This document shows, one piece after another, positions 1,066 to 57,466 of a DNA stretch of 64,000 bases. Location of the stretch: contig DHJC01000073.1 in assembly GCA_002404155.1 (NCBI GenBank), positions 38,937 to 102,936 on the forward strand, written 5' to 3'. The DNA is from Chloroflexi bacterium UBA4730 (GTDB lineage Bacteria; Chloroflexota; Limnocylindria; P2-11E). The position numbers and the translations under genes are program-made. Numbering within the stretch: position 1 is the first letter of the stretch; each line of letters opens with the position of its first letter. The notes beneath the pieces were generated by a model. The model was not told the DNA's origin, did not search any database, and worked only from the letters and a program-made list of their open reading frames with translations.

Positions 1066-1081
1066 AGGGCCGGAGGTCCCG
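1066..1081. promoter_or_regulatory. DosR/OsdR-like operator box (AGGGCCGGAGGTCCCG) upstream of nirK
   Basis: Quasi-palindrome in the short intergenic gap, ~60 nt before the nirK start; same motif recurs at least 15 times in intergenic DNA. Confidence 0.65.
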
Positions 1082-1090
1082 ACCGCGGGG

Positions 1091-2392
1091 CTAGCGGCGG
1101 CGGCCGAAGCGGATCTCGAGCGGCACCGGCGCGCCCGCCGCGACCACCTCGGCGCTCGGACCCCGCAGCGTGCGGACCACGTTCAACGCGAAGAGCACGA
1201 GCGCACCGTAGGCGAGGAGCCCGGAGATGCCGACGATCGCGTCGCTCGGCGCACCCGTGGCTTGAACCAGCTGCGGCCCGACGCGCAGCGCGATCGCCAG
1301 ATTCGCGACCGCGAGCGTCGCCGCTTGCACTCGAAGGCTCCAAAGGCGGCGGCCGAGGAAGGCAGGCAGCGCACGCGACGCCACCGAGTAGATCATCAGC
1401 GTGACGAACCCAAGCGCCAGCGCGTGCCGGGCCGCCGAGACCTGGAGGTACGAGCCCGCGAGTCCCACCGTGCCCGCCGCGATGATCGCGAGTCCGATGA
1501 ACGCCCACAGGAACGCGGAACGCACGCCGATGCGGGTCAGGCGGGCGTGATCATGCAAGGGCTGACGGGCGATGCCCGATCCAAATACGCCCATCGCGCG
1601 GGTCAGCGCCGCAAGACCGACCAGCAGCAGCCATGGCCCCGGGGCCACGCCGAGCGAGAGAGTGAGGACACCCGCGAGCCAAAACGACGCGCCGGTGATG
1701 AGCAGCGGAGGCTTCGCTGGCACAGCGGCCACAAAGCCGGGGGCGAGGCGAGTCCACACGCCGAAGATGAGCGTGCTGAGGCTCCCGAGCAGCATCACCC
1801 ACACCGCCCGGTCATCGATGCCCTGGTCGACGAGCACGGGTGCAGATCCCGCCATCTCGAGGGCGACGAGCAGCGCGGCGATGGGCAGCACGCAGATCCC
1901 CGCGCCGATGAGAAGCTCGTCGGGCCGGTGGGGATTGCGGCCGGTCGCGAGCGATCGGAGTGCCGCGTAGCTGAAGGCGAGCGTTCCCACGCACAACAAC
2001 GCGCCGCTCAGAACAAGCAGCGAACCACGCGCGGGGAGGTCGGGCATCGGTTGGGCGATGGAGCGCAGGGCGAGGCCGCCCAGGGTCCCGAGGTACGTGA
2101 TCCACACGAGCGCCATCCGCGGAGGCGCCGCACCGCGGAATCGTGGCAGCGCGTTCAGCGCGACGCCCATCGCGAAGAGGCCGGCGAAGCCGAACAGCTG
2201 CAGCAGCCCATGGACCTGAACGAGTACGAGCCAGTTCGCGCCGAACATGCTGACGCCCCACACGCGGGCCAACAGCAACCAGAGACCGAGGCCGAAGCCC
2301 GCGCTCAGGCCGATCGCCAGCGAGGTCGCCGCGAAGAGGGCGACCGGCGGCGGACGAGTACTAGTCGACGTGTCGGTCGGCCAGGCCCGCAT
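1091..2392 (-). CDS. nnrS: NnrS-family multi-pass membrane protein (NO-stress associated)
   Basis: 433 aa, ~12 hydrophobic helices, HGLLQLFGFAGLFAMGVA...LPRF and RHALALGFVTLMIYSVASRALPAF repeats typical of NnrS; adjacent to nirK. Confidence 0.72.
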   Translation of the reverse strand: MRAWPTDTSTSTRPPPVALFAATSLAIGLSAGFGLGLWLLLARVWGVSMFGANWLVLVQVHGLLQLFGFAGLFAMGVALNALPRFRGAAPPRMALVWITYLGTLGGLALRSIAQPMPDLPARGSLLVLSGALLCVGTLAFSYAALRSLATGRNPHRPDELLIGAGICVLPIAALLVALEMAGSAPVLVDQGIDDRAVWVMLLGSLSTLIFGVWTRLAPGFVAAVPAKPPLLITGASFWLAGVLTLSLGVAPGPWLLLVGLAALTRAMGVFGSGIARQPLHDHARLTRIGVRSAFLWAFIGLAIIAAGTVGLAGSYLQVSAARHALALGFVTLMIYSVASRALPAFLGRRLWSLRVQAATLAVANLAIALRVGPQLVQATGAPSDAIVGISGLLAYGALVLFALNVVRTLRGPSAEVVAAGAPVPLEIRFGRRR

Positions 2393-2573
2393 CCTGACCG
2401 ACGGGGACCGGACTTACGGCAGCGCAGCGCAGCGCCGGCGTGCCGGCGGAGCGATCCAGATCGAGCAACCAGTTGCATTCTAGGCAGCGCGCGAGATCGA
2501 CCTCCTCGCCCCGCCGAGCGCAGTGCACCCGCCCGCTGGCAAGGACGGGACGCCAGCCACGCTCGCTATTCAT
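2361..2573 (-). CDS. Small Cys-rich hypothetical protein (70 aa), putative metal-binding
   Basis: MNSERGWRPVLASGRVHCARRGEEVDLARCLECNWLLDLDRSAGTPALRC...; ATG overlaps the end of the upstream PCYCGC gene (ATGAATAG), and the ORF overlaps the NnrS start. Confidence 0.55.
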   Translation of the reverse strand: MNSERGWRPVLASGRVHCARRGEEVDLARCLECNWLLDLDRSAGTPALRCAAVSPVPVGQDAGLADRHVD

Positions 2574-3024
2574 CGGGGTATGGGGTCGACGCGGACGGTC
2601 CCATCTCCATCCACTTCGCATCGATCGCGGCCCGAATTTCCTTCAGGCTCATGCCGCTCGCGAGCATGGCCTTCGTGTCGAGCGCGACACCCACGCAGGT
2701 GCCGCAGGCGAAGCCGTGCGGATCGAGGATGAACGTGTCTGGCGCCGTCTCTTCTTTCACGAAGCAGTCCCAGTTGTCACGATGCCCGGGGCCGCAGCCG
2801 CAGAAGCACGGGATGTGGCGCAGCTGCGCCTTGTGATCGACCGCGAACGCGTAGGCCTCGCGGACCGCTTGCGGCGCCTGCGCATAGCGACCGGGCCACA
2901 TGCCGTGCAGCGGCATCGCCAGCAGTGCGTTCGCGGTCGGTGCCGGTGCTGTTGCGACGGCGGGGGCCGCGCACGCGGCGAGCGCGGCACCGGCGAGCGC
3001 GACGAGGAACTCCCGGCGACGCAC
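2566..3024 (-). CDS. PCYCGC-motif lipoprotein
   Basis: GTG start at 3024; RRREFLVALAGAALAAC signal/lipobox; AYAFA, HIPCFCGCG..H..NWDC and HGFACGTC motifs characteristic of the family. Confidence 0.85.
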   Translation of the reverse strand: MRRREFLVALAGAALAACAAPAVATAPAPTANALLAMPLHGMWPGRYAQAPQAVREAYAFAVDHKAQLRHIPCFCGCGPGHRDNWDCFVKEETAPDTFILDPHGFACGTCVGVALDTKAMLASGMSLKEIRAAIDAKWMEMGPSASTPYPDE

Positions 3025-3417: not shown

Positions 3418-3456
3418 ACGGCCGCAGGTCCCGACTCGCGTAGGCCGAACGGCCCG
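3418..3456. promoter_or_regulatory. Two DosR/OsdR-like boxes (3418-3433 ACGGCCGCAGGTCCCG; 3441-3456 TAGGCCGAACGGCCCG)
   Basis: Match to the recurrent intergenic motif, upstream of the multicopper-oxidase relic/PCYCGC/NnrS genes. Confidence 0.5.
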
Positions 3457-3468: not shown

Positions 3469-4965
3469 CTACTGCACCAGGAACGCGAAGCGGAAGATCG
3501 GCAGCCGATTTCCCGGATGGTCGTCGAGGGCCGTCAGCTGCGGCATCTTGTAGTTCGCGGGCCGCGTCTCACTTCCCTGGTAGATGCCGGGGTACATGTC
3601 GATGAAGTGCCAACCCGGCTCGCCGGCGACGGTGAGCAGGATCTCGATGTCGCCGGCGCTCTGGAACGCGCAGGAGTAGCCGGCGAAGGCGTTGTCGTAC
3701 ACGAGGTGGTAGATCTGCTCGGTCTCGGTCCACCCGACGCCCTTGAGGTGCACCGACACCTTCGTCCCCGCGGGACCGCGGTCGACCGAGAGCGGGAACG
3801 CGTTCGCGAGGATGTAGAGGTTCGTCTTGGCGACGACGGTGTCGCCGATCTTCGCGGAGAGCACGTGGTCGCCGCCGAGGTCGTCGGGGACCTTGAACGC
3901 CCAGGTGAATGCGCCGTTGCCGTCGGTGCGCGTCGTGCCGAGCGCCTTGGTGCGCTCCTCGAAGCCGGTGACGGACCGGTTGCCGACCATTGTGGTCCAC
4001 CCGATCTCGATGTCGCTGTTCGCGGGGAGGGCCTTCGCGTTCAGCGTCGCGGGCGTGCCGACGATGGCGCCGCCTGGCGAGGTCCAGATGCCCTTGTCGA
4101 CCGGCTTCGCGCCGATGATCGCGAAGCCCTGCTGCTCGACGGGCTCGGGGAGGACGGCCGGGCCGTCGGTGATGGTGAACGGCAGGTGCGGGAACGGCCG
4201 CGATGCGACGACGGGCTGCTGCTGCGGGTTGAGGTACGGAGCGCCGAACTCGCTGTGCCCGAGGGTGATGTAGTGCGCGCCGGGCCTGCCGGTCGCCGGG
4301 ATGACGAACTTCGCGTAGCCGTCGGTCGTGATCGAGGAGACCCAACCGGTGTAGGCGTTGTCCCAGGAGAGCTGAAAGCTGTTCTGGTACGACTGCCAGC
4401 CGATGCCCTTCACCTCGACGGTGATCGGCGTGCCGAGCGGGCCGCTCGTCGGGCTGATGGTGGTGACCATGTCGACGTCGAAGAGGCTCTTGTTCCTGAT
4501 GATGCTCTGCGCGTCGACGACCATGACGTCGTGCGCGTAGCCGAAGCCGCGCGGCACGCTGAACGTCGCCTGGAAGCCGCCGTTCGCGTCGGTGGTCGGG
4601 CTCTGCAGCACGTTCTGGATGAGCGACGCACTGCGGCCCAGAAACTTGCTGCGATCGTCCGAAAGCTTCCATTGGACCTTGCCAGTGGTCCAGACGAGGT
4701 CGTACTTCGTCGACGGCTTCATGCCGGTCACCGTCGCCGTGACCTTCGTGTCCCACGGACCGCGTGCTGGTTCGAGGGCGAACTTGCCGACGACCTCCAT
4801 CGGCTGGACCGATGCGGTCGGGGCGGTGGATGCGACGGCCGCCGCCGCGCTCGCGGCGGGCTTGGCCGTCGCAGCACTCTCCAGACTCCGCGTGGGCGGA
4901 GCCTGGGTCGTGCTGCAGGCCGCGAGGAAGAGCGCCGCCGCGATCGCGACGGCGACACGCCTCAT
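3469..4965 (-). CDS. Lipoprotein of unknown function with repeated Ig/IPT-like beta-sandwich modules (498 aa)
   Basis: Lipobox LFLAAC; repeated module starts EPARGPWDTKVTATVTG / SPTSGPLGTPITVEVKGIGW / SVDRGPAGTKVSVHLKGVGW; repeated YDN(A)Y/F.G and TTDANGGF/TRTDGNGAF. Confidence 0.8.
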   Translation of the reverse strand: MRRVAVAIAAALFLAACSTTQAPPTRSLESAATAKPAASAAAAVASTAPTASVQPMEVVGKFALEPARGPWDTKVTATVTGMKPSTKYDLVWTTGKVQWKLSDDRSKFLGRSASLIQNVLQSPTTDANGGFQATFSVPRGFGYAHDVMVVDAQSIIRNKSLFDVDMVTTISPTSGPLGTPITVEVKGIGWQSYQNSFQLSWDNAYTGWVSSITTDGYAKFVIPATGRPGAHYITLGHSEFGAPYLNPQQQPVVASRPFPHLPFTITDGPAVLPEPVEQQGFAIIGAKPVDKGIWTSPGGAIVGTPATLNAKALPANSDIEIGWTTMVGNRSVTGFEERTKALGTTRTDGNGAFTWAFKVPDDLGGDHVLSAKIGDTVVAKTNLYILANAFPLSVDRGPAGTKVSVHLKGVGWTETEQIYHLVYDNAFAGYSCAFQSAGDIEILLTVAGEPGWHFIDMYPGIYQGSETRPANYKMPQLTALDDHPGNRLPIFRFAFLVQ

Positions 4966-4970
4966 GTCAT

Positions 4971-5525
4971 TTACCTCTTTCCGAGCGGCACGACGGTGAG
5001 AAGGGCCGCGGCGACCTTGAACTGATCCCAGGTGCCAACGGCACCATCGAGCGTCGTTACCTTGATCTGGTAGGTGAATGCGCCCGTTGGGTAGTCCTTT
5101 GGCAGGCTGAAGCCAGAGGTCCAGAAGAAGTCCGTGGGCACTGCGTTCGCACCGCCCGGGTGACCGCCGTACTTGAAGGCCTGGGTCTTTCCGTCCGGGA
5201 GCGTCAGGTCAAACGACTTGATGGCCTTGTCGTCCAGGGCCTTGCCCGAGAGCGGATCGAGCGCCTTGAAGCGCCACACGATGCGCGAGCCCTGCGGGAA
5301 CCGGCTCTGCTGGACGCAGGAGAGGAACGTCTTCTCCTCGTCGGTGAGCGCTTCGGGACTGCGGACCGTGTCGCCCTGCAGGATGAGGAACGATGCGACC
5401 TGCGGCTTCGCCGTGGTGGCCGCGGTCGCGGCGGTCGATTCGCCGGTGCCGCCTCCACACGAGGCAAGCGTGCCGACGACGAACGCGAAGGACGCGGTGG
5501 TCGCGAGGATGCGGCGCAAGATCAT
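4971..5525 (-). CDS. Lipoprotein of unknown function (184 aa)
   Basis: Signal peptide with lipobox LASC, A/T linker, beta-rich domain (SCVQQSRF...VWRFKALDP...YGGHP...FWT...DYPTG); start overlaps the upstream stop. Confidence 0.75.
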   Translation of the reverse strand: MILRRILATTASFAFVVGTLASCGGGTGESTAATAATTAKPQVASFLILQGDTVRSPEALTDEEKTFLSCVQQSRFPQGSRIVWRFKALDPLSGKALDDKAIKSFDLTLPDGKTQAFKYGGHPGGANAVPTDFFWTSGFSLPKDYPTGAFTYQIKVTTLDGAVGTWDQFKVAAALLTVVPLGKR

Positions 5526-6181
5526 GCGGTGTCTCCCTTTCGGCGTGATTCATTCGCGCGGGCGACCACGCCACGCGCGGTACCGAACAACGAAAGCGCG
5601 ATGAGGCCCCAGACCGCGAGCACCACGACCCCGGCCGCGTACGGGACGTACGCACTGAAGGTCGCGAGCGCGGGCCGGTCGACGGTGTACGCGGGCGCGG
5701 CGACGGTGGCCTCGAGCGTCGTGACGCCGAGTGACGGTGTGAGCGTGCCCTGTCCCGCGAAGCGCGCGACGATCTGGTGCGCGCCCGTCATGGCGGGGAG
5801 GTACGAGATCGCGGTGAGACCCTGTCCGTCGGTCACCGCGCTGCCGATGAGCTCCTCCCGCTGGCCGAACAGGTCGACGATGTCGTAGAAGCGGATCGTC
5901 GCGTCGTTCACCGGCATTCCGGCGGGGCTGATGACCGTCACGCTCAGCGTGTATCCGAGCTCCAGCTTCGCGGCGGGCGCCGTCGAGAGTGTCACCCGCG
6001 ATCCGTCGGCCGGCGGGACGATCGGCTGTGGGGCGGCGACCGTCGGCGCGCCGCTGTGCGCATGCGCGTCGTCGCTCGCCGCCGGAGCGCCCGCCACGAG
6101 CGGGAGCCGACCGCTGGCGAAGGCGATCACCGCGAGCGTCGCGACGAGGGCCGAGCCCAATAGCAGAGCTTTCCTGATCAC
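5522..6181 (-). CDS. Membrane-anchored Ig-like domain protein (signal/TM + Ig-like + C-terminal TM); homologous to the C-terminal fusion domain of the NrfD at 61740-63707
   Basis: GTG at 6181 overlaps the NrfD stop (GTGA); G.PV.DATIRF...IGSAVTDGQG.......TGAHQIVARFAG, then TM GVVVLAVWGLIALSLFG. Confidence 0.75.
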   Translation of the reverse strand: MIRKALLLGSALVATLAVIAFASGRLPLVAGAPAASDDAHAHSGAPTVAAPQPIVPPADGSRVTLSTAPAAKLELGYTLSVTVISPAGMPVNDATIRFYDIVDLFGQREELIGSAVTDGQGLTAISYLPAMTGAHQIVARFAGQGTLTPSLGVTTLEATVAAPAYTVDRPALATFSAYVPYAAGVVVLAVWGLIALSLFGTARGVVARANESRRKGDTA

Positions 6182-7512
6182 TTCCCACCGCCCTCGGCGA
6201 ACGTCGGCACGAGCACGATGGCGCGCGGCTCGGGCGTGCCTTCCACCTCTTCCATCTCGTGGACCGACATCACCGGGAAGAAGCGGAAGAAGATGATGAG
6301 GATGAGCGGGATCGCGGCGGCGGAGCCGATCGTGATCGTGACCTCGACCCACGTGGGCGAGTACCGGCCCCAGTCCCACGGCATGATCGGCTCGGCCATG
6401 CCGGGCACCACGATGAGGAACCGCTTCAGCCACATCCCGGCGATGACGAGCGTCGAGGCGCCGACCGCGCGCGCGATCGTGAACCGACCGGGAAACGCGG
6501 CGAGTGCGAGCGGGACGATGAGGCCGAGGATGGTGAAGGACCAGAAGGCCGGCGCGTAGCTGCCGACGAAGATCGCCTCGAGTACCGGCGTGACGCTCTC
6601 CTCGGCGAGGTATCCCTCCGTGAGGTACTCGCTGACCATGAAGTACAGGTAGCCGACGCCCAGGGCGATCATCAGATAGGAGAGGTACCGAAAGTGCCTC
6701 GCGGTGATGAACTCCTGGAGGCCGTAGACCTTGCGGAACGCGGCCACGACGAGGATGACCGCCGCGACGCCCGAGAGCATCGCGGCCAGGACGAACAGCG
6801 GAGCGAAGATCGTGCTGTGCCACCCGCCGCGCGCCGTCACCGCGAAGAGCCACGCGAGGACCGAGTGGACCGAGACCGCGAGCGGGATGATCAGCACGGC
6901 CATGATCCCGATGCCCCGGTGGAGCGAGGCCCGTTGGCCCGGCGTGCCCTTCCACCCGAGCGCGAGGACGCCGTAGATGCGCTGCAGCCTGCTCATGCGG
7001 AGCGAGTCGCGCGTGGTCGCGAGATCCGGGATGAGCGGCAGGTAGAGGAAGACGAGGCTCGCGATCATGTACGTGCTGATCGCGACGACGTCCCACACGA
7101 CCGGTGATCCGACCTGGCCGTACCGGAGGATGTACAGGAAGCGGTCCGGACGGCCCATGTCGATGATCGGGTACACCGCGCCGACGAGGAGCGCCGCGAC
7201 CGCCGTCGTTTCCGCCAGTCGCGTGAGCGGTGCGCGCCACTTCGCGTTCGTGAGACGGAGGATCGCGCTCGTCATCGCGCCGCCGTAGCTCATGCCGATG
7301 AAGAAGACGCAGTTGATGATGTAAAAGCCCCAGGAGACCTGCTGGTTAAGGCCGGTGACCCAGAGGCCGCGCTGGATCTGGTAGATCCAGGCGTAGATGC
7401 CGGCTGCGACGAGCGCGGACAGGACGGAGACCGCGATCCAGAAGTTGCGATCGCCGCGGCCGATGGGCCACGTCGCGCGCTCGATGTAACGGTCGTGCGT
7501 CCGGCGGTCCAT
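6178..7512 (-). CDS. NrfD/PsrC/DsrP-family quinone-interacting membrane subunit
   Basis: 444 aa, ~10 TM; GLWVTGLNQQVSWGFYI, DMGRPDRF, SPVVWD, SVHSVLAWLF, GWHSTIFAPLFV, MWLKRFLIVVPG, YSPTWVE. Confidence 0.9.
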   Translation of the reverse strand: MDRRTHDRYIERATWPIGRGDRNFWIAVSVLSALVAAGIYAWIYQIQRGLWVTGLNQQVSWGFYIINCVFFIGMSYGGAMTSAILRLTNAKWRAPLTRLAETTAVAALLVGAVYPIIDMGRPDRFLYILRYGQVGSPVVWDVVAISTYMIASLVFLYLPLIPDLATTRDSLRMSRLQRIYGVLALGWKGTPGQRASLHRGIGIMAVLIIPLAVSVHSVLAWLFAVTARGGWHSTIFAPLFVLAAMLSGVAAVILVVAAFRKVYGLQEFITARHFRYLSYLMIALGVGYLYFMVSEYLTEGYLAEESVTPVLEAIFVGSYAPAFWSFTILGLIVPLALAAFPGRFTIARAVGASTLVIAGMWLKRFLIVVPGMAEPIMPWDWGRYSPTWVEVTITIGSAAAIPLILIIFFRFFPVMSVHEMEEVEGTPEPRAIVLVPTFAEGGGK

Positions 7513-8292
7513 CTAGAAGTCCAAGAGCTGACCGTGGCCGGCGATGTAGTAGACGCGCGGGCCGGTGCCGAGCTCTTCCTTGTAGCGGAACGCGTCATTC
7601 TCCTTAAGGAACGTCGAGAGGCGTACGGTCCGGTCACCGTTCGTGGCGACGTCCTCGACGAGGTCGCCGATGTAGATCGCCTTCATGGGGCAGCCCTCAA
7701 CGCACGCGGGGAGCTGCCCCTCCGCGGTGCGGTGGACGCAGAACATGCATTTGCCGACGGTGCCCTTCTGCTGCGGCACCGGGAACTCCGGGGTCGCGTG
7801 TCCGAAGGGGTTGTCGTACTTCGGCGGGTCGACGTAGTTGAAGTAGCGGGCGCCGTACGGGCACGCCGCCATGCACATGCGGCAGCCGATGCAGCGGTCC
7901 TGATCGACGAGGACGACGCCGTCGGCTACACGGTAGGTCGCGGCGACCGGGCACACGCGGAGGCACGGGGCGTTCTCGCACTGGAAGCAAGGACGCGGCA
8001 TGAAGTACTCGCCGCCGTGCTTGTCCTTGACCTGGAAGACCTTGATCCACTCGAAGTTCTGCGGGAGGTGGTGCGTCTCCTGGCAGGCCTCCGTGCACTT
8101 CTTGCAGCCGTCGCAATTCCGAAGGTCGATGACCATCGCCCACTGACGCGGCTTGGCGTCGGGTGCGTGTTCCGACTCGGCCGCCGCCTCGAACGTGATC
8201 GGGGACATCCCGGCCGCGACGGCCACAGCGGCGCTGGCGCCCAGACCGCCGAGACCAACCAGGAGCTGCCTGCGGGAGACCGGGCCCGCCAT
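7513..8292 (-). CDS. Tat-exported 4x[4Fe-4S] ferredoxin subunit (NrfC/DsrO/DmsB-like)
   Basis: ATG at 8292 after a GAGGAGAGG RBS; SRRQLL twin-arginine signal; MVIDLRNCDGCKKCTEAC, CFQCENAPCLRVCP, CIGCRMCMAACPY, CMFC...ACVEGCP. Confidence 0.92.
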   Translation of the reverse strand: MAGPVSRRQLLVGLGGLGASAAVAVAAGMSPITFEAAAESEHAPDAKPRQWAMVIDLRNCDGCKKCTEACQETHHLPQNFEWIKVFQVKDKHGGEYFMPRPCFQCENAPCLRVCPVAATYRVADGVVLVDQDRCIGCRMCMAACPYGARYFNYVDPPKYDNPFGHATPEFPVPQQKGTVGKCMFCVHRTAEGQLPACVEGCPMKAIYIGDLVEDVATNGDRTVRLSTFLKENDAFRYKEELGTGPRVYYIAGHGQLLDF

Positions 8293-8368: not shown

Positions 8369-8384
8369 AGGGCCGTTCGGCCCA
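8369..8384. promoter_or_regulatory. DosR/OsdR-like box (AGGGCCGTTCGGCCCA) upstream of the NrfC/NrfD-nirK operon
   Basis: Near-perfect palindrome; 14/16 identical to the OsdR consensus AGGGCCGATCGGCCCT as I recall it; a degenerate copy sits at 8476-8491. Confidence 0.75.
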
Positions 8385-8851: not shown

Positions 8852-9496
8852 CTAGAGGCGCGGCTTGTGCTTCGCCATGTACGCCGCGGCCTCGGCGCGG
8901 CGTGAGAGGCCGAGCTTGTCGAGGATCCGGCTGACGTAGTTCTTCACCGTCTTCTCCGACAGGAAGAGTGCGTCGCCGATCTCGCGGTTCGTCTTTCCTT
9001 CGGCCAGGCCCGAAAGCACCTTGCGCTCCTGCTCGGTGAGCGAAGCGAGTGCAGGATCTTCAGCCCGGCTCTCTCGCAGTCGCTCCAGCACCTTGCCCGT
9101 GACATCGGGATCGAGCAACGAGCGACCGGCGGCGACGGCGGTGATCGCGTCGACGACGGCCTGACCGCGGGTCTGCTTCAACAGATACCCGGAGGCGCCG
9201 GCGATGATCGAGGCGAACAGCGCCTCGTCGTCGGCGTACGAAGTGAGCATGATCACCTTCGTCTCGGGTCGCGCCTCGCGGATCGCGCGGCATGCCTCGA
9301 CTCCGGAGCCATCGGGAAGGCGCACGTCCATGATCACCACATCCGGCTTGGCGCGTGCCGCGGCCTCGATCGATTCGGCCACGCTGCCGGCCTCCCCGAC
9401 CACGCTCATCCCCGCCTGGCGGCTGATTAAGCCGCGAAGTCCCTCCCGTACCACCTCGTGGTCATCGCAGATCAGCACCCGTGTCGTCGTCGTCAT
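8852..9496 (-). CDS. NarL/LuxR-family response regulator, DosR/DevR-like
   Basis: RVLICDDHEVVREGL, DVVIMDVRLPDGSGVEACR, LTSYADDEALFASIIAGASGYLLK, LTEQERKVL..LAEGKTNREIG..LFLSEKTVKNYVSRILDKLG, closely matching DevR. Confidence 0.92.
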   Translation of the reverse strand: MTTTTRVLICDDHEVVREGLRGLISRQAGMSVVGEAGSVAESIEAAARAKPDVVIMDVRLPDGSGVEACRAIREARPETKVIMLTSYADDEALFASIIAGASGYLLKQTRGQAVVDAITAVAAGRSLLDPDVTGKVLERLRESRAEDPALASLTEQERKVLSGLAEGKTNREIGDALFLSEKTVKNYVSRILDKLGLSRRAEAAAYMAKHKPRL

Positions 9497-10863
9497 GCCG
9501 CGGCTCCCTTCGATATAGGCATCCGCATCACCAGGCGGGTCCCGGCGCCCGGGCGCGACTCAAGCTCCAAGCGTGCACCCGCATTGAACGCGCGCTGGCG
9601 GATGTTCCGCAGACCAAGGCCCCCGACCGCACGCTCGGTCTGGAATCCGACGCCGTCGTCCTGGATCTCGAGCACGACCGCACCGTCCTCGTGGCGCAGA
9701 GCGAGCACGACGTGCCGTGCCCGCGCGTGACGCGAGACGTTGCCGAGGGCATCGGCAGCAACGTAGAACACGGCCTCGCGTGCGGCGCGATCCAAGCGCG
9801 CCTCTGCCTCCGGATCGATGCGCACGTCCACGTCCAGCAGCGCGTTGGTCGCGATGTGCTGCGCCAGGGTCGGGAGCGACTCGCGTAGCGGGCGGTCAGA
9901 TCCTCCGATCGGGCGGAGGCCGAGCACGTAGCCGCGCAGATCGGCGATGGCGGCATTGAGTCGGTCGACCGCACGTTCGAGCTGCGCGCGGGCCTCACTG
10001 GGTGCGCGTTCGACCTCTTCGGAAGCGCCCTCGATGAGCAGGCCCAGAGCGTAGAGCGACTGGATCGCGCCGTCGTGCAGATCCATCCCGATGCGATGCC
10101 GCTCCTCGAGCACGGACATCTTGCTGGTCTGGGCGTAGAGACGCGCGTTCTCGATCGCGATCGCGGCTTGCGCGGCCAACGCGAGCAACGCCTCCTCGTC
10201 CTCGACCGTGAACTCGTTGCCGCCCAGTTTCTCGGTCAGGTAGAGATTGCCCACCGACTCACCCCGCCAGCGGATCGGCACACCCAGGAAGCTCTTCATC
10301 GGTGGATGGTTGGGCGGAAAGCCGACGGAGGCCGGATGCGCGCGGAGGTCACGTAGCCGGATCGGGCGACCCTCGCGGGGCAGGAGCCCGAGGATACCTT
10401 TGCCCACTGGCGGCGGGCCGATCCGTTCGTGTGCTTCGTCGCTGATCCCTGACGTGTAGAAGTGCGTGATGCGCCCCTGCTCATCGAACGTGCCCAGCGC
10501 CGCGTACTTGGCATCGCCGACGATGCGCGCAAGCTCGGCGATCTTGTGCAGCAGGGTCTCGGTCTCGAGCTCGGCACTGAGCGCGAGTCCAGCTTCGTTC
10601 AGCGCCCGGAGCCGACGCGACTGCGCGATCTCGCGCAGGTGCAGATCACCCAAGCGTGCCAGGATCGCGATCGCGAAGGTGACGACGCCAGCGGCACCGA
10701 TCGCCAGAAGTGCGGCGTGGCCCGCTGCCGAGGGCAGTGACGGCTCCAGTACCCAATAGTCGAGCCCGACGAGCGCAGCGAGCAGCAGCACGGGAAGCAC
10801 GAGCGCCGCAGCGATGAGGCGAGCGGGATAGACACGCCGACCGGCCAGGACGCCGAGGTTCAC
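9493..10863 (-). CDS. GAF-domain sensor histidine kinase, DosS/DosT-like
   Basis: Two N-terminal TM; GAF with HPASVGFPPNHPPMKSFLGVPI (DosS-type heme His position); HisKA_3 ERHRIGMDLHDGAIQSL; HATPase DDGVGF...GLGLRNI; coupled to the regulator (ATGA overlap). Confidence 0.9.
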   Translation of the reverse strand: MNLGVLAGRRVYPARLIAAALVLPVLLLAALVGLDYWVLEPSLPSAAGHAALLAIGAAGVVTFAIAILARLGDLHLREIAQSRRLRALNEAGLALSAELETETLLHKIAELARIVGDAKYAALGTFDEQGRITHFYTSGISDEAHERIGPPPVGKGILGLLPREGRPIRLRDLRAHPASVGFPPNHPPMKSFLGVPIRWRGESVGNLYLTEKLGGNEFTVEDEEALLALAAQAAIAIENARLYAQTSKMSVLEERHRIGMDLHDGAIQSLYALGLLIEGASEEVERAPSEARAQLERAVDRLNAAIADLRGYVLGLRPIGGSDRPLRESLPTLAQHIATNALLDVDVRIDPEAEARLDRAAREAVFYVAADALGNVSRHARARHVVLALRHEDGAVVLEIQDDGVGFQTERAVGGLGLRNIRQRAFNAGARLELESRPGAGTRLVMRMPISKGAAA

Positions 10864-14221: not shown

Positions 14222-14259
14222 AGGGCCGGTGGTCCCGTTCCGATGGGCCGAAGGTCGGC
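14222..14259. promoter_or_regulatory. Two DosR/OsdR-like boxes (14222-14237 AGGGCCGGTGGTCCCG; 14244-14259 TGGGCCGAAGGTCGGC)
   Basis: Recurrent motif, upstream of the REC-HK gene. Confidence 0.65.
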
Positions 14260-16659: not shown

Positions 16660-16660
16660 G

Positions 16661-43412: not shown

Positions 43413-43447
43413 CGGCCTCGGTTCGGGGGACGGTCCGCCCCATATCC

Positions 43448-43463
43448 GGTGACCTTCGGCCCT
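43448..43463. promoter_or_regulatory. DosR/OsdR-like box (reverse strand AGGGCCGAAGGTCACC) upstream of the microprotein-aconitase unit
   Basis: Recurrent motif. Confidence 0.65.
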
Positions 43464-43639: not shown

Positions 43640-43772
43640 TGCGCTCGTCTTTCTCGTCGCGCTTGTCCTTCCGATCATGACCCTCGCCATCCTCGTCGGG
43701 TTGATCACCGGAGTCGCTGAGCTCGAACGCTCGCGCGACGAGCTCATCGAGCTCAGCGCGTCGAAGAGGTAG
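43629..43772 (+). CDS. Single-pass membrane microprotein (47 aa)
   Basis: MTADALVFLVALVLPIMTLAILVGLITGVAELERSRDELIELSASKR*; overlaps the previous ORF by 11 nt. Confidence 0.55.
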   Translation: MTADALVFLVALVLPIMTLAILVGLITGVAELERSRDELIELSASKR

Positions 43773-43837
43773 GGTGGTGTTCTGGAAGAAGCGCGACCGC
43801 GCCCTACGGCAAGCGACTGCCTGAGCTCACGCTCTCG

Positions 43838-45790
43838 GTGACCGGCTCGGTCACGGAAACGATCCTCCGTGAGCATCTGATCGAGGGTGAGCTCACGCCG
43901 GGGAGCGAGATCGCGATCCGCATCGATCACACCCTGACCCAGGATGCGACCGGGACGTTGGCGTATCTGCAGTTCGAGGCCCTCGGTCTCGAGCGCGTAC
44001 GCAACGAGCTCGCGGTTTCCTATATCGACCACAACATGCTGCAGACCGGTTTCGAGAACGCGGACGACCACCGGTTCCTGCAGAGCACGGCGGCGAGGTT
44101 CGGCGCGCACTTCTCGCGGCCGGGCAACGGGATCTGCCACCAGGTGCATCTGGAGCGCTTCGCCGCACCGGGCAAGACGCTGCTCGGCAGCGACTCGCAC
44201 ACCCCGACCGCCGGCGGGATGGGCATGCTCGCGATCGGTGCGGGCGGCCTCGACATCGCGATGGCCATGGCGGGAGAGCCGTTCATTCTCGAGATGCCGA
44301 CGGTGGTGGCCGTCCGGCTGCACGGCGCACTCATGCCGATGGTCTCGGCCAAAGACATCATCCTCGAGCTGCTCCGGCGACTGAGCGTGCGCGGCGGCCG
44401 CGGGCGGATCTTCGAGTACATCGGCCCCGGCGTCGACGGGCTCTCGGTGCCCGAGCGGGCGACGATCACGAACATGGGCGCCGAGCTCGGCGCGACGACC
44501 TCGATCTTCCCCAGCGACGAGCAGACCCGCCGCTACCTGCGCGCGCAGGGCCGCGAGCTCACCTGGCGTCGGCTGCTCGCCGATGCCGCCGGGTCGTACG
44601 CGGAGGAGCTCGCGATCGATCTGACGACCCTTGGACCGCTCGTAGCGCTGCCGCACTCGCCAGACCACGTCGTGCCCATCACCGGCGTCGTCGGCACCCC
44701 CATCCAGCAGGTCGCGATCGGCTCGTGCACCAATTCGAGCTACCGGGACCTCCTGATCGCGGCGAAGATCCTCGAGGGTCACAGCATCGACCCGAGCGTT
44801 TCGCTCGTGGTGAGCCCTGGGTCGCGTCAGGCGTTCCTGATGGCCGAGCGCGAGGGCGTGATCGAGACCTTCGTGCGGGCCGGGGCACGGATCCTCGAGT
44901 CAGCCTGCGGCCCCTGCATCGGGATGGGTCAGGCGCCGGCGTCAGGCTCGGCGTCGCTGCGCTCGTTCAACCGCAACTTCAGCGGCCGCTCCGGAACCGC
45001 GGATGCCGGCGTGTACCTCGCCAGCCCCGAGGTCTGCGCCGCGAGCGCGCTGAGCGGCCGGATCAGCGATCCGCGCGACCTCGAGCGCATTCCTGAGGTG
45101 CGCGCGATCCCCGCTGCGTACCAGATCGACGACTCGCAGATCCTCGCGCCCGCACCGACCAGCGACGTTGCGATCGTCCGCGGTCCGAACATCGCCCCAC
45201 TCCCCACCTTCGGCCCGCTTCCGGCGACGGTCGCGGGTCCGCTGCTCAAGAAGCTCGGCGACGACATCTCCACCGACGACATCCTCCCCGCCGGGGCCGA
45301 GATCCTGCCGTTCCGCTCGAACATCCCGGTGCTCGCGCGATTCACGTTCAAGCGCCTGGACCCGAGCTTCGCCACCCGCGCGGCAGCGCAGTCCGGCTCG
45401 TTCATCGTGGCGGGGCGCAACTACGGTCAAGGGAGCTCGCGCGAACACGCAGCCATGGTGCTGCGCTACCTCGGCGTCCAGGTCGTCATCGCGGAGTCCT
45501 TCGCCCGGATCCACGCAGCCAATCTGGTGAACTTCGGGATCGTCCCGCTGACCTTCGATGATCCGCGCGATCTGCAGCTGCTCCAAGAGGGCGACACGCT
45601 CGCGATCGAGGACATCGCCGGAGCGCTTGCTGTCGAGTCGGTGCCGATCCGGCTGGAAGTGTCGCGTCTGGAGCGGCCGGTGCTGCTCCGCCACCAGCTG
45701 ACCGAGCGGCAGATCGCGATCCTCCAGGCCGGCGGGCTCCTCAACCGGGCCCGGCGCGCGGATCGCTCGAAGGCGGCGGCGCTGGCCTGA
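43838..45790 (+). CDS. Aconitate hydratase (short ~650 aa type)
   Basis: DHTLTQDATG, YIDHN, PGNGICHQ, GSDSHT, IGSCTNSS, CGPCIGMG, RSFNRNF.GRSG, ISTDDI, NYGQGSSREHA. Confidence 0.92.
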   Translation: MTGSVTETILREHLIEGELTPGSEIAIRIDHTLTQDATGTLAYLQFEALGLERVRNELAVSYIDHNMLQTGFENADDHRFLQSTAARFGAHFSRPGNGICHQVHLERFAAPGKTLLGSDSHTPTAGGMGMLAIGAGGLDIAMAMAGEPFILEMPTVVAVRLHGALMPMVSAKDIILELLRRLSVRGGRGRIFEYIGPGVDGLSVPERATITNMGAELGATTSIFPSDEQTRRYLRAQGRELTWRRLLADAAGSYAEELAIDLTTLGPLVALPHSPDHVVPITGVVGTPIQQVAIGSCTNSSYRDLLIAAKILEGHSIDPSVSLVVSPGSRQAFLMAEREGVIETFVRAGARILESACGPCIGMGQAPASGSASLRSFNRNFSGRSGTADAGVYLASPEVCAASALSGRISDPRDLERIPEVRAIPAAYQIDDSQILAPAPTSDVAIVRGPNIAPLPTFGPLPATVAGPLLKKLGDDISTDDILPAGAEILPFRSNIPVLARFTFKRLDPSFATRAAAQSGSFIVAGRNYGQGSSREHAAMVLRYLGVQVVIAESFARIHAANLVNFGIVPLTFDDPRDLQLLQEGDTLAIEDIAGALAVESVPIRLEVSRLERPVLLRHQLTERQIAILQAGGLLNRARRADRSKAAALA

Positions 45791-46505: not shown

Positions 46506-46521
46506 CGAGTCGTTCGGCCCT
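46506..46521. promoter_or_regulatory. DosR/OsdR-like box (reverse strand AGGGCCGAACGACTCG) upstream of USP 3
   Basis: One strong half-site of the recurrent motif. Confidence 0.45.
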
Positions 46522-46570: not shown

Positions 46571-47491
46571 ATGAAGGTGCTGTTCGCGACCGATGGATCC
46601 CCGGAAGATCAGCAGGCCCGTCACTTCGTGGCCGCGGCGTCCTGGCCGGCCGGCACCCAGATCGAGCTGTTCGGGGTCATGGCGCCAGTCGCGCTCGCGG
46701 TGTCAGGTGAGCTGCTCGATCGGAACGCGCGCGACTTCGAGCACGAGCTCGACTACCTTGCCACGAGCCTCCCCCGCCGTGACGCCACGGTGACCTGGCG
46801 GGACGCGGTCGGGCAGCCGGCTGACGCGATCGCGGCGCGGGCACGGGCGATGGAGGCCGATCTCATCGTGGTCGGTTCGCGTGGACGTGGACCCCTCGCC
46901 ACGAGCATCCTCGGTTCGGTCTCGGCCGGCGTGATCGACCGTGCACCCTGTCCGGTGCTCGTCGCACGGCGCGCGCGGACCGAGCGGATCGTGCTCGCCG
47001 ACGACGGATCGGTCGGCGCCGCGACCGCCGCCGCGTTCTTCGATGAATGGCCGATCTTCGGCGAGACCTCGCTCCAGGTCGTGACCGTGGTCGACGTGGG
47101 TCGTCCGCTCTCGGCCTCCGACGACGCGCCGATGCTTTACTCCGCGGGCGAGCGGCTGTACATCGAGTCGCTCGACGAGGAGCGCGAGCGCGCGCGTCAG
47201 ACGGTCGCCGCGCGCGCGAAGGGGTTGAAGCCGCGAGCTCGCACGATCAAGACGTGCATCCGCGAGGGCGCCGCGGCCGACGAGATCCTCACCGCGGCGC
47301 ACGACTTCGCCGCCGATCTCATCGTGATGGGCTCGCGCGGCCACACCGGGCTCGCCCGGTTTTTTGCCGGCAGTGTCGCGCGGCAGGTGCTGCTGGGGGC
47401 GACGTGCTCGGTGCTCATCGCGCGCGGCTCGGCGCAGCTGGTGCGTGAGCGCGAGCACCCGACACCGTTCGGTGTCGTGGCGCTGGCCTGA
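46571..47491 (+). CDS. Tandem-domain universal stress protein (USP 3)
   Basis: MKVLFATDGS; GSRGRGP...LGSVSAGVIDRAPCPVLVAR; GSRGHTG...GSVARQVL. Confidence 0.92.
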   Translation: MKVLFATDGSPEDQQARHFVAAASWPAGTQIELFGVMAPVALAVSGELLDRNARDFEHELDYLATSLPRRDATVTWRDAVGQPADAIAARARAMEADLIVVGSRGRGPLATSILGSVSAGVIDRAPCPVLVARRARTERIVLADDGSVGAATAAAFFDEWPIFGETSLQVVTVVDVGRPLSASDDAPMLYSAGERLYIESLDEERERARQTVAARAKGLKPRARTIKTCIREGAAADEILTAAHDFAADLIVMGSRGHTGLARFFAGSVARQVLLGATCSVLIARGSAQLVREREHPTPFGVVALA

Positions 47492-47510
47492 GCCGTTGAG
47501 CACGAAGACG

Positions 47511-48173
47511 ATGACTGTGCCGCGCCCGCCGAAGTCCGACCGCGAGATCCAGAGCGAGGTGCTGGCCGAGCTCGATCGCGACGGCCGCCTCTCTGCGGCG
47601 GAGGTCGGCGTCGCGGTGGCGGGTGGCGTCGTCACCCTGACCGGTACCGTGTCTTGCTGCGAGAAGGTCGAAGCCACGTCGGACACCGCCGTGAGCGTTG
47701 CGGGGGTGCGCGACGTTGCCAACAAGCTCGCGGTCGAGGGCGATGGGCATGAGCACGACGATACGAAAATCGCCCGCACGATCCGCCACGCGCTGGGTTG
47801 GAACACGGCAGTGCCCGCGGAGCAGATCGACACCATCGTCCGCCGCGGCGTGGTGACCCTGCGCGGCAGCGTCGAACACTGGTACCAGCGCAAGGCCGCC
47901 GAGGGGACGGTCGCGGGCGTCGCGGGCGTCGTGTCGGTGAGCAACCAGATCCAGCTCTTGGCCACGCCCACGAATGACGAGATCCTCCGCGAGGAGGTCG
48001 AAGACGCGCTGGCGCATCTGCCGAGCTGCGGCGACGTCGATGTTTGGGTCGCAGACGGCGTCGTCACGCTGGTCGGCGAGGTCGGCTCGAGCCCGCTGCG
48101 CCGGCACGCCGAGACGCTCGCGGCGGCCGCGTGCGGCGTGCGTTCGGTCATCAACCAGCTGCGGTCGCGCTAG
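47511..48173 (+). CDS. Triple-BON-domain protein (BON 3)
   Basis: KSDREIQSEVLAEL, GVVTLTG, DDTKIAR.IRHAL.WN..VP, GVVTLRG. Confidence 0.9.
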   Translation: MTVPRPPKSDREIQSEVLAELDRDGRLSAAEVGVAVAGGVVTLTGTVSCCEKVEATSDTAVSVAGVRDVANKLAVEGDGHEHDDTKIARTIRHALGWNTAVPAEQIDTIVRRGVVTLRGSVEHWYQRKAAEGTVAGVAGVVSVSNQIQLLATPTNDEILREEVEDALAHLPSCGDVDVWVADGVVTLVGEVGSSPLRRHAETLAAAACGVRSVINQLRSR

Positions 48174-48878
48174 GTGACGGTCAGCCTGACCAGCCAGCAC
48201 ATCGAGCGGCACTTCCGCGGCAGCGCCGTGGTGCGCGACGTCGTGATCGGGATGTCCGATGGACTCACGGTGCCATTCGCGTTGGCGGCCGGACTCTCCG
48301 GCGCGGTCGCCTCCTCAGGCATCGTGGTGACCGCGGGGCTCGCGGAGATCGCCGCGGGGTCGATCGCGATGGGTCTAGGGGGCTTCCTCGCGGCGCAGAG
48401 CGAGGCCGAGCACTACGCCTCCGAGCGCGCTCGCGAGGAGCGGGAAGTCCGCGCGGTCCCGGAGCTGGAGCGGCGGGAGGTCGAGCACATCCTCCGTTCG
48501 TACGGCCTCTCGCAGGGGTCAACGGAGACGATCGCCCGCACCCTGGCGCGTCGGCCGAGGCGGTGGGTCGACTTCATGATGCGATTCGAGCTCGGCCTCG
48601 AGACGCCCGATCCACGCCGCGGAGCGCGCAGCGCCATCACGATCGGCGGCTCCTACGCCATCGGCGGCCTGGTGCCGCTGCTCCCGTACATGCTCATGGC
48701 GCGCGCGGCGAGCGCGTTGCTCGTTTCGGCCGTGTTCACGCTGGCCACTCTCCTGGTCTTTGGCTACGTGAAAGGGCGATTCACCGGCGGGCCCGCAATT
48801 CGAAGCGCGGTGCAGTCGCTGCTCATCGGCGGCGTCGCTGCGGCCGCCGCGTTCGCGCTCGCGCGGGCGATCTCATGA
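48174..48878 (+). CDS. VIT1/CCC1-family Fe/Mn transporter
   Basis: RDVVIGMSDGLTVPFALAAGLSGA, AGSIAMGLGGFLA, EREVRAVPELE, MMRFELGL, GGLVPLLPY. Confidence 0.93.
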   Translation: MTVSLTSQHIERHFRGSAVVRDVVIGMSDGLTVPFALAAGLSGAVASSGIVVTAGLAEIAAGSIAMGLGGFLAAQSEAEHYASERAREEREVRAVPELERREVEHILRSYGLSQGSTETIARTLARRPRRWVDFMMRFELGLETPDPRRGARSAITIGGSYAIGGLVPLLPYMLMARAASALLVSAVFTLATLLVFGYVKGRFTGGPAIRSAVQSLLIGGVAAAAAFALARAIS

Positions 48879-48972: not shown

Positions 48973-48988
48973 GGGGCCGAATGGCCCT
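48973..48988. promoter_or_regulatory. DosR/OsdR-like box (GGGGCCGAATGGCCCT)
   Basis: Near-palindromic copy of the recurrent motif ~45 nt before the ATG at 49035. Confidence 0.7.
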
Positions 48989-56167: not shown

Positions 56168-56168
56168 G

Positions 56169-57416
56169 TCAGCCGGCCAGGCCGACCGCGTGACCGATCG
56201 GCACGCGGAGGCGCAGGACGGTGCCCGCGCCGGGCTCGGTGGACCACGACACGGAGCCGCCGACGGAGGCCGCCCGCTCGCGGATCGCCCGCATGCCATA
56301 TCGAGGCCAGTCCTCCGGACCGGACGCACGAAGATCGAACCCCGTGCCGTCGTCCTCCACGAGGAGCACGAGCTCGCGATCGCGGGCGTCGACCTCCACA
56401 CGCGCGCGCCCGGCCGACGCGTGCTTCCGGATGTTCGTGAGGCCCTCCTGGACGATGCGGAACACCTGCGCCTGGATCTCCGGCGGGAGCTGAACGACGC
56501 GCGCCAGGGGGCTCGCGTCGACCTGGGTGACCAGCTTCGACGCTTCCGAGAACCGGACCGCGTATTCCTCGAGCGCGCCGACGAGGCCGCGCTCCGGCAC
56601 GATCGGGCTGGAGAGGCCGAGGATGGCTTCGCGCACGTCGACGTAGACGGAGCGCGCGGCCGCAGAGAGCTCGGCGAGCTGCTGCCGGGCCCGATGGGTG
56701 TTCCCCGCGGAGAGCAGCTCCTCGACCGCCTGGGCCTTCGTGTTCACGTATCCGAGGACCTGCGCGAGGCCGTCGTGCATTTCGTGCGCGATCCGGTCGC
56801 GCTCTCCCCTGATGGCGAGCTCACGTAGCTCCCGCTGCAGCCGGACGTTCTCGAGCGCGACGGCCGCTTGGGCGGCGAGCGCAGACAGCATCTCGAGGTC
56901 CTCGGGTCCGTAGCGGCGCCCGTCGGACAGCGATCCGACCGCGAGCGTGCCGATGGTCGCCGGTCCCCGCTGCAACGGCGCGACGAGGCGGGCGCTCCGC
57001 GCCCTGGGATCGCCGTCCATGATGGCGATCTGTTCCGAGCCGTCGGGCGCGACGAGCGTCGTGAAGGCCGCGTCCGTTTCGAGCAGGAGCCGCGCATCGG
57101 CGACGACCGCACGCAGGATCTCGTCGCTCCCGACGAGGGTCGTCATCTTCATGCCGAGGCGACGCAGGGCCTGGAGCGACGCGTTCCGCCGCTCGAGCGT
57201 CGCGTTGCGCTCCCGCAGGGTGTCCGAGAGACGGTCGATCCGCCGGAACGCGATCCGCCCGAGGACGAGCGACAGGAGGAGCACCGCGGTCGGAATGACG
57301 AGGACGTCGAACGGCGCCGGGAGGATCCGGTCGAGGATGCTGTCGCTCGCGAACTCGAGGAGGCCGACCAGCACCACCGGCAGGGCGATGACGGACCAGC
57401 GGATCTTCGACAGCAT
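56169..57416 (-). CDS. Sensor histidine kinase (HisKA_3, NarX/NarQ-like architecture)
   Basis: Two TM, short GAF-like segment, ERDRIAHEMHDGLAQ, EGLTNIRKHA, DDGTGF, YGMRAIRERA. Confidence 0.9.
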   Translation of the reverse strand: MLSKIRWSVIALPVVLVGLLEFASDSILDRILPAPFDVLVIPTAVLLLSLVLGRIAFRRIDRLSDTLRERNATLERRNASLQALRRLGMKMTTLVGSDEILRAVVADARLLLETDAAFTTLVAPDGSEQIAIMDGDPRARSARLVAPLQRGPATIGTLAVGSLSDGRRYGPEDLEMLSALAAQAAVALENVRLQRELRELAIRGERDRIAHEMHDGLAQVLGYVNTKAQAVEELLSAGNTHRARQQLAELSAAARSVYVDVREAILGLSSPIVPERGLVGALEEYAVRFSEASKLVTQVDASPLARVVQLPPEIQAQVFRIVQEGLTNIRKHASAGRARVEVDARDRELVLLVEDDGTGFDLRASGPEDWPRYGMRAIRERAASVGGSVSWSTEPGAGTVLRLRVPIGHAVGLAG

Positions 57417-57450
57417 CAGTTGAGGCTAGCCGTCGCCACAGGCTCGCCAG

Positions 57451-57466
57451 AGGGCCGTCCGGCGGC
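57451..57466. promoter_or_regulatory. DosR/OsdR-like box (AGGGCCGTCCGGCGGC) in the divergent HK / flavoprotein-operon promoter
   Basis: One strong half-site; related GCCGAACGGC words at ~57476 and ~57498. Confidence 0.4.

Follow-up and report, generated by a model that had tools for sequence, protein, structure and literature searches.

The window analysed here, a stretch of 64,000 nucleotides with a G+C content of 69.6%, lies on the longest contig of the Chloroflexi bacterium UBA4730 assembly (3.27 Mb, 92 contigs), for which a codon-bias model called 3,227 genes (87% coding). The host is an uncultured soil bacterium of the phylum Chloroflexota, class Limnocylindria, and not an actinomycete. 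The nearest devR loci are found in Chloroflexota/Limnocylindria metagenome-assembled genomes (MAGs), with regulator identities of 77-88% and syntenic housekeeping neighbours. The genome is larger than those of 18 relatives of the same genus (1.6-2.6 Mb). The window contains genes for a response regulator (8852-9496) and an adjoining sensor kinase (9493-10863), surrounded by genes for copper nitrite reductase (nirK), universal stress proteins (USPs), Hsp20, P-type ATPases, aconitase and a hydrogenase, and by intergenic copies of a 16-bp palindrome with the consensus AGGGCCG-NN-CGGCCCT and the half-site variants GGGAC and GTGMC. An earlier note on this DNA had proposed that the local regulator is DevR-like and acts through this palindrome, here called the box, in the manner of the DosR/OsdR dormancy regulons.

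All 15 strong boxes listed in the earlier note were recovered at their positions as written, each in intergenic DNA, and all 18 sequences quoted there are present. The box at 26688 is seemingly coding under a naive open reading frame (ORF) call, but the ATPase gene behind it probably starts at the ATG at ~26750, which leaves the box 54 nt ahead of the gene. The core dyad GGGMC-N4-GKCCC occurs seven times in the window, in every case intergenic, compared to 1.06 ± 0.91 copies expected from 100 dinucleotide shuffles, and control dyads with spacers of N3, N5 or N6 gave no intergenic copies within the window. Over the whole genome, 13 copies of the dyad are intergenic and 19 are coding, which amounts to a 4.4-fold excess in intergenic density, and the window, with 1.5% of the genome's intergenic DNA, holds 7 of the 13 intergenic copies. 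With this excess, and with shuffles that never match the observed counts, the equal frequency in coding or shuffled DNA that the earlier note had named as refuting its reading is not seen. The 7-mers most enriched in the intergenic DNA of the window relative to other intergenic DNA (TAGGGCC, GGGACCT and AGGGCCG) are fragments of the box. An exact enumeration of 5+5 dyads over the whole genome proved too strict (GGGCC-N4-GGCCC: 7 intergenic, 9 coding) and was set aside.

The similarity to the Streptomyces OsdR site and the mycobacterial DosR box that had been pointed out is borne out, in that the box equals the published consensus of Streptomyces coelicolor OsdR, AGGGCCGATCGGCCCT, verified by electrophoretic mobility shift assay (PMC5069765). 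A search of the window with this consensus, leaving the two central bases free (AGGGCCGNNCGGCCCT) and allowing up to three mismatches, returned 27 matches compared to 13.1 ± 3.4 in shuffled DNA, a count reached by none of 100 shuffles. Genome-wide, up to one mismatch gave 6 intergenic matches and 1 coding match; with up to two mismatches, 5 of the 20 intergenic matches fall inside the window (P = 1e-5).

A position weight matrix (PWM) built on the 15 strong sites of the earlier note finds 38 intergenic sites at a score of at least 12, compared to 8.9 ± 3.1 in shuffled intergenic DNA, and 18 compared to 2.0 at a score of at least 14. In leave-one-out scoring, 13 of the 15 strong sites score at least 9, and the two weaker ones, 14244 (5.7) and 46506 (8.1), are both in the expected geometry. 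About 10% of intergenic regions elsewhere attain a score of 8. Among the three weaker sites that had been suggested, the one at 57451 (10.9) is supported because it is phased at 22 bp with boxes at 57473 and 57495, while those at 12322 (6.8) and 41774 (4.3) are at background level. Boxes at 38974, 40922 and 41688, together with several distal partner boxes, are additional to the original list. A second, unrelated intergenic palindrome, AGGGG-N7-CCCCT, has 12 intergenic copies and 1 coding copy genome-wide (P = 4e-10).

The best solved-structure match of the 8852-9496 product is DevR of Mycobacterium tuberculosis (3c3w, E = 1e-58, full length, ~50% identity), with a bit score of 201 compared to 165 for VraR and 106 for NarL. 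Its recognition helix, EKTVKNYVSR, is identical to that of M. tuberculosis DevR, and Asp54, Thr82, Lys179, Lys182 and Asn183 are kept in the alignment, the last three being the base-contacting residues in the DosR-DNA structure. Thr82 is the cooperativity residue of DevR (PMC4973870). In a maximum-likelihood tree, the regulator lies inside the DevR/OsdR clade (100/99), separated from its paralogues by a branch length of 1.09; it is the sole DevR/DosR orthologue in the genome, the next paralogue being 42% identical. The Limnocylindria regulators are monophyletic (100/99) and sister to one Dehalococcoidia and one 'Bacillota' MAG (97/89), outside the large Actinomycetota clade (99/83) that includes M. 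tuberculosis DevR and the Streptomyces proteins. The regulator described earlier as DevR-like is thus a true DevR/DosR orthologue, as judged from the 3c3w match, the position in the tree, the identical helix and the adjoining DevS-like kinase. Since the host belongs to Limnocylindria, Chloroflexota, the regulon reaches beyond the Actinomycetota, as had been anticipated for a host other than an actinomycete.

In the kinase, residues 101-246 align to the haem GAF-A structures of DevS (E = 1e-42) and keep the equivalents of His149 and Tyr171 in the motifs NHPPM and LYLT; in DevS GAF-A, His149 is the proximal haem ligand and Tyr171 the distal residue (PMC4082495). The domain is predicted to be a haem-type sensor. 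It is followed by HisKA_3 (PF07730, residues 254-318) and HATPase_c (PF02518, residues 364-450). Because GAF-A ends at residue 246 and HisKA_3 begins at 254, GAF-B is absent, and the distance from GAF to regulator, ~630 nt in every Limnocylindria locus, is too short to accommodate another GAF domain. The first 75 residues contain two hydrophobic stretches. The sensor is therefore a variant with a single GAF, and it is probably membrane-anchored.

The boxes are arranged in a regular manner relative to one another and to the genes. Around the 39 primary intergenic boxes, a partner box is spaced at exactly 22 bp in 12 cases and at 23 bp in 3, with almost none elsewhere between 14 and 60 bp, and in the window the partner is on the gene-distal side. 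By analogy, this tandem arrangement matches the cooperative sites of M. tuberculosis DevR, for which cooperative binding to tandem sites is required for activation (PMC4973870). Of 40 oriented box-gene pairs, 7 have the motif TANNNT beginning 29-31 nt from the centre of the box and 4 more have it at 52-53 nt; at other offsets it is almost absent. With such a -10 element ~30 nt from the box, the proximal box centre would lie near -42, overlapping the -35 region, and the distal one near -64. The start codon is ~42-44 nt from the box centre in the USP, GNAT-ACS, DedA, HybE-like, small-ORF/aconitase, DsbA-like and FeS-flavoprotein promoters, which implies leaderless mRNAs, and several targets thus appear leaderless.

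Of 31 related genomes, 23 have a DevR orthologue, among them 13 of the 18 congeneric ones, a group with many incomplete genomes, and a box scoring at least 12 was found in 16 of 25 devR loci of relatives (~3.6 kb each), with ~0.1 expected per locus. In other genomes and families, the orthologues of the nirK, aconitase, HybE-like, devS and USP genes have a box in front of them, the devS boxes being in other families of Limnocylindria, and the Hsp20 gene has boxes in relatives too. The nirK box is at the same place in three other genomes of the genus (alignment A1), and in a second family of the class a NirK-like gene is divergent from devS, with a box of score 16.9 in one genome. For the aconitase operon, the proximal box and the ATG 43 nt downstream are kept in three genomes (alignment A2). 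The proposed extension of the regulon to nirK and aconitase is thus backed by conservation across genomes. One relative (G017) has a box at the place equivalent to 3418/3441 and another before the orthologue of the 48973 target, and in it 57473 and 57495 recur with identical sequences. An extra, weaker proximal nirK box, considered from a conserved block in alignment A1, scored below 3 at 21-23 bp offsets and was rejected. The gene order of the island is reshuffled among G003, G005, G007 and G017, with the clustering around devSR kept.

Control of the hydrogenase, also proposed in the earlier note, is plausible only, as the boxes at 31672 and 31694 fit the divergent HybE-like gene, at -42/-64, ideally, and control of the hydrogenase is not separable from that of HybE. 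The hydrogenase is present in 3 of the 31 relatives, one of which (G023, from another family) has a box ~150 nt upstream. None of the 18 genomes of the same genus has the enzyme.

In a wider comparison, 80 DevR-like loci drawn from many phyla were only modestly enriched in boxes over their 20-kb flanks. Eight regulators from low-GC Anaerolineales/Chloroflexia (L027, L033, L037, L040, L051, L062, L070 and L075) form a separate, near-identical clade with the helix GEGTVRNYVSS, and no GGGMC-N4-GKCCC was found within 10 kb of these eight; their operator probably differs. Because of this other helix and the lack of a nearby box, the regulon is not claimed for all Chloroflexota.

Table 1. Regulatory genes, boxes and predicted target genes in the window (positions are those of the 64,000-nucleotide stretch; a dot marks features without strand).
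Feature	Position	Strand	Evidence and remarks
DevR/DosR-orthologous response regulator	8852..9496	-	Pfam PF00072 (REC) and PF00196 (GerE helix-turn-helix); 214 aa
DevS-like sensor kinase	9493..10863	-	Pfam GAF-A, HisKA_3, HATPase; adjoins regulator
nirK, copper nitrite reductase with N-terminal membrane anchor	1..1008	-	TIGR02376, 346.9 bits vs cut-off 296.3 (full-length protein); exceeds window edge
Box upstream of nirK	1066..1081	.	PWM 14.5; centre ~66 nt before ATG at 1008
NnrS and PCYCGC genes	1091..3024	-	Pfam; downstream of multicopper oxidase remnant
Tandem boxes 3418 and 3441, 23 bp apart	3418..3456	.	PWM 11.7, 14.1; before oxidase remnant-PCYCGC-NnrS string
4Fe-4S, NrfD, Ig-like and two unknown proteins	3469..8292	-	Pfam; stripped-down alternative-complex-III-like module
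Best box in window	8369..8384	.	PWM 18.8; 1 mismatch to OsdR consensus; divergent region before 4Fe-4S/NrfD operon
Orphan histidine kinase	13075..14022	-	Pfam HisKA and HATPase
Boxes 14222 (proximal) and 14244 (weak distal), 22 bp apart	14222..14259	.	PWM 15.0, 7.7; before orphan HisKA kinase
Tandem USP, PNPOx-like, phosphoketolase, acetate kinase, MgtA-type P-ATPase	14263..21514	-	Pfam; ATPase TIGR01524
Two boxes, divergent USP / GNAT-ACS region	21550..21627	.	PWM 14.3, 17.9; each 30-31 nt before TACCGT -10; start codon ~+43/+44
GNAT and ADP-forming acyl-CoA synthetase (ACS)	21664..24377	+	Pfam, NCBIfam; two ORFs here
Boxes 26666 (distal) and 26688 (proximal), 22 bp apart	26666..26703	.	PWM 7.2, 14.9; before P-type ATPase 2
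Type-IIA-like (CtpF-like) P-type ATPase	26750..29239	+	Pfam, NCBIfam
Box before DedA/VTT gene	29824..29839	.	PWM 12.6; -10 TAGCGT at +30
HybE-like, Hsp20, BON genes	29928..31637	-	Pfam
Tandem boxes 31672 and 31694	31672..31709	.	PWM 13.1, 14.6; between HybE-like gene and hydrogenase operon; TACGGT +30, HybE ATG +42
Group-1-type [NiFe] hydrogenase: Tat small subunit, large subunit, cytochrome b, protease	31783..35737	+	Pfam, NCBIfam; RRSFL Tat motif
Boxes 38974 and 38996, 22 bp apart	38974..39011	.	PWM 11.8, 7.3; before DksA-type zinc-finger gene; centre 43 nt from start codon
Boxes 40922 and 40944	40922..40959	.	PWM 11.8, 7.5; divergent DUF4342 / Germane region
Box upstream of BON-SDR genes	41688..41703	.	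PWM 12.0
Boxes 43426 (distal) and 43448 (proximal)	43426..43463	.	PWM 8.8, 13.7; small-ORF/aconitase operon
Two conserved small ORFs, then 650-aa aconitate hydratase	43499..45790	+	Alignment A2; NF005558, 914 bits vs cut-off 612
Box before tandem USP-BON-VIT1	46506..46521	.	PWM 12.8, leave-one-out 8.1; -10 TAGGTT at +30
Tandem USP, BON, VIT1 genes	46571..48878	+	Pfam
Box before 196-aa protein of unknown family	48973..48988	.	PWM 17.9
Three boxes phased 22 bp	57451..57510	.	PWM 10.9, 12.7, 13.9; between second GAF kinase/NarL-like regulator and GltD-like operon

Among the box-bearing families in the genome (Table 1) are USPs (three in the window and one on C45), Hsp20, a PNPOx-like protein, P-type ATPases and a phosphoribosyltransferase. 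The USP to P-type ATPase string at 14263-21514 is a probable single operon, from its tight gene spacing; the ATPase that it includes is MgtA-type rather than CtpF-like. The 4Fe-4S/NrfD string has an orthologous copy beside devR in L005. Two genes behind boxes are disrupted in this assembly. The GNAT-acyl-CoA synthetase is split into overlapping ORFs of 434 and 470 aa, the break falling inside the Succ_CoA_lig domain, while in relatives L003 and L112 it is one ORF of 904-913 aa, so the split is a frameshift or an assembly error. Between the boxes at 3418/3441 and the PCYCGC gene lies a multicopper oxidase remnant (3029-3400, minus strand, ending at ~3027) with the motifs HRHG and HHNATEQ...GMLGPLIV and a one-base frame change near 3235. 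Similar fragments are present in G007 and G017, and the remnant reflects either gene decay or a fault in the assembly.

Downstream of the aconitase box, the two small ORFs (43499-43772, plus strand) encode ~40-50 aa each, the first hydrophobic, and this pair, placed after the box and ahead of the aconitase gene, is conserved in three genomes. With its ATG 43 nt from the box centre, the first ORF may encode a small membrane peptide translated from a leaderless mRNA. Most of the genes annotated in the window stand immediately behind a box, and a cupredoxin gene is also among the annotated ones. A 138-nt direct repeat (11468-11605 and 12157-12294, 76% identity) lies upstream of this gene and of the small gene preceding devS, and both copies carry the same weak box-like 20-mer, GAAGGGGCTTTCGGCACCAT (score 9.7).

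The best box in the genome (19.0) is outside the window and precedes a gene for an FeS flavoprotein. Strong boxes outside the window are also found before genes for citrate synthase (three boxes), pyruvate:ferredoxin oxidoreductase, a phosphoribosyltransferase, a USP/P-type ATPase pair, a cupin and small membrane proteins. The last of these, without a Pfam family, are encoded at C8:112508-113452 and C16:20-352. In three other Limnocylindria genomes (L002, L003 and L004), the orthologue of C8:112508-113122 is directly upstream of devS-devR, behind a box, and its product may be an accessory membrane partner of the sensor.

Palindromes in 70% G+C DNA may arise by chance or as structural elements, such as intrinsic terminators or hairpins of the repetitive extragenic palindromic type. 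Perfect copies of the box can indeed fold into stable hairpins (-10 to -13 kcal/mol), and GC-rich near-matches are common in coding DNA. The terminator or hairpin reading was ruled out, however, by the scarcity of T-runs, which adjoin only 1 of 37 sites, by the rarity of sites in convergent intergenic regions (0.047 per kb, compared to 0.10-0.11), and by the weak folding of several good sites (-2 to -3 kcal/mol). Eleven sites belong to the promoter regions of divergent genes, a phasing of exactly 22 bp and a constant spacing of 30 nt to the -10 element are properties of promoters, and shuffles never attain the observed box counts, so that a structural or chance origin is extremely unlikely. 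If the boxes are operators, they could be bound by a different regulator of the NarL family, with the DevR orthologue a bystander, for example by the pair at 55532-57416, where a second REC+GerE regulator with a GAF kinase adjoins the three-box array, or by the two 42%-identical C58 paralogues, four paralogues in all scoring above 100 bits against the DevR orthologue. The DevR recognition helix is nevertheless found only in the 8852-9496 protein, the other regulator of the window (55532-56167) has its best match in NarL (130.6 bits, compared to 94.4 to DevR), the box equals the OsdR/DevR box, and in relatives boxes are directly beside devS-devR. We consider binding by another family member improbable on these grounds.

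Several observations weigh against control of the island by the DevR orthologue. The set of sites on which the PWM was built is not independent. At a score of at least 12, it gives 55 coding matches compared to the 38 intergenic ones, and as GC-rich coding matches are common at moderate scores, single weak sites are unreliable. Refining the PWM on genome-wide intergenic matches made it more GC-driven and less specific, and the first matrix was therefore kept and a-priori patterns were used for the statistics. A strict TANNNT at +30 is present in only 7 of the 40 oriented pairs. No strong autoregulatory box precedes devS-devR in this genome, unlike in M. tuberculosis, Streptomyces and other Limnocylindria families; the best upstream candidate (9.7) sits within the 138-nt duplicated element. 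The half-sites at 57451-57510 are of the GTG type, and the adjacent NarL-like regulator could own these boxes. Finally, a box centred near -42 overlaps the place of the -35 element, so repression would be possible in principle, and proteins of the NarL family are capable of it; the orthologue might then bind the boxes and mainly repress by occluding -35, with the island expressed when the regulator is unphosphorylated. This is unlikely, as the promoters have a -10 element but lack any recognisable -35, a pattern usual for class II activation, and the target functions suit an inducible low-oxygen programme. DevR and OsdR activate from the same arrangement, activation in M. tuberculosis needing tandem cooperative sites (PMC4973870).

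Weighing these points, the 16-bp palindrome is very probably the operator of the DevR/DosR orthologue, as predicted from sequence. The reading that a local DevR-like regulator controls this clustered island thus finds support in orthology, box statistics, geometry and conservation. From the same data we infer binding, activation rather than repression, and the nature of the signal. The partner kinase would sense falling O2, NO or CO through its haem GAF-A and phosphorylate the regulator on the conserved Asp54 equivalent. Regulator dimers would then bind the proximal box ~42 nt upstream of the transcription start, in the place of the -35 element, and often also a second one, upstream of the first by exactly 22 bp or two helical turns, and would activate sigma-70-type promoters, several of the targets apparently being leaderless. 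In the window, ~17 transcription units (~45 genes) are predicted to be controlled in this way. Their predicted products include NirK, NnrS, the quinol-oxidising FeS/NrfD module, tandem USPs, Hsp20, BON proteins, the PNPOx-like protein, phosphoketolase with acetate kinase, acyl-CoA synthetase, the two P-type ATPases, aconitase and, probably, the group-1 hydrogenase. Predicted members elsewhere are citrate synthase, pyruvate:ferredoxin oxidoreductase, the phosphoribosyltransferase and another USP/ATPase pair.

A nirK or NirK-like gene is beside devSR in at least two Limnocylindria families, so, more speculatively, the system may mainly sense the NO that NirK produces, or an O2 level low enough for nitrite to be reduced. 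Acetyl phosphate is a known in vitro phosphodonor for DevR and OsdR, and because phosphoketolase makes acetyl phosphate, the regulon could feed back positively on its own regulator. The branching of the regulator outside the actinobacterial clade argues for an old low-oxygen/NO response common to several Gram-positive-related phyla, rather than an actinobacterial speciality. As a tentative and rather speculative extension, we hypothesize that Limnocylindria DevS/DevR may be an ancient minimal switch, not recently borrowed from actinomycetes, with a membrane-anchored sensor bearing a single haem GAF and NirK as its primary partner, which through leaderless class II promoters would turn on nitrite reduction, acetyl-phosphate ATP synthesis (phosphoketolase, acetate kinase), hydrogen use and protein protection. 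For an abundant uncultured lineage of soil and freshwater, a regulon conserved across the class would predict, from genomes only, how these bacteria live once oxygen is exhausted, namely by reducing nitrite, fermenting through phosphoketolase and using hydrogen.

A search of a limited literature collection found no DosR/DevR regulon described in Chloroflexota. As far as the sequence can tell, the system described here is a DevR/DosR-type regulon in a new phylum, whose operator and promoters follow the canonical logic, whose sensor is a variant and whose targets are partly new. To our knowledge, work on DosR/DevR has dealt almost exclusively with its role as a switch for dormancy and drug tolerance in mycobacteria, Streptomyces OsdR being the environmental counterpart. 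Compared to M. tuberculosis DevR-DevS/DosT (~48-gene regulon), the two systems have orthologous regulators, a haem-type GAF-A with proximal His and distal Tyr, the dyad core GGGMC-N4-GKCCC, tandem boxes with the proximal one at -35, and the target families tandem USPs, Hsp20, PNPOx-like, P-type ATPases and phosphoribosyltransferase. They differ in that the Limnocylindria host has a regulator outside the actinobacterial clade, no strong autoregulatory box, one GAF instead of two, two N-terminal hydrophobic segments in the sensor, many apparently leaderless targets, and the half-site GGGCC rather than GGGAC. The predicted targets here also add nirK/NnrS, the FeS/NrfD quinol module, phosphoketolase-acetate kinase, aconitase, citrate synthase and pyruvate:ferredoxin oxidoreductase.

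Control of a [NiFe] hydrogenase by DosR under hypoxia is already known in Mycobacterium smegmatis, which likewise ties a DosR-type regulator to hydrogen metabolism. The M. smegmatis enzyme is the cytosolic, fermentative group 3b Hyh, whereas the one here is a Tat-exported, cytochrome-b-linked uptake enzyme of group-1 type, and the case for its control consists of the boxes shared with the HybE-like gene and the one box in G023. In Proteobacteria, nirK and nnrS are under regulators of the NnrR, NsrR or FNR type (Crp/FNR or Rrf2 families), which use other boxes. A regulator responding to NO or low oxygen would likewise act here, but it belongs to the NarL family of response regulators and would receive its signal from a haem-GAF kinase. 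A further parallel is S. coelicolor OsdK-OsdR, with the same 16-bp consensus, a regulon clustered around the regulator gene (SCO0167-SCO0219) and USP genes dominating the targets (PMC5069765). OsdR differs in that it autoregulates from a box at -81 and controls development genes, and its island has a nar nitrate reductase in place of nirK (PMC5069765).

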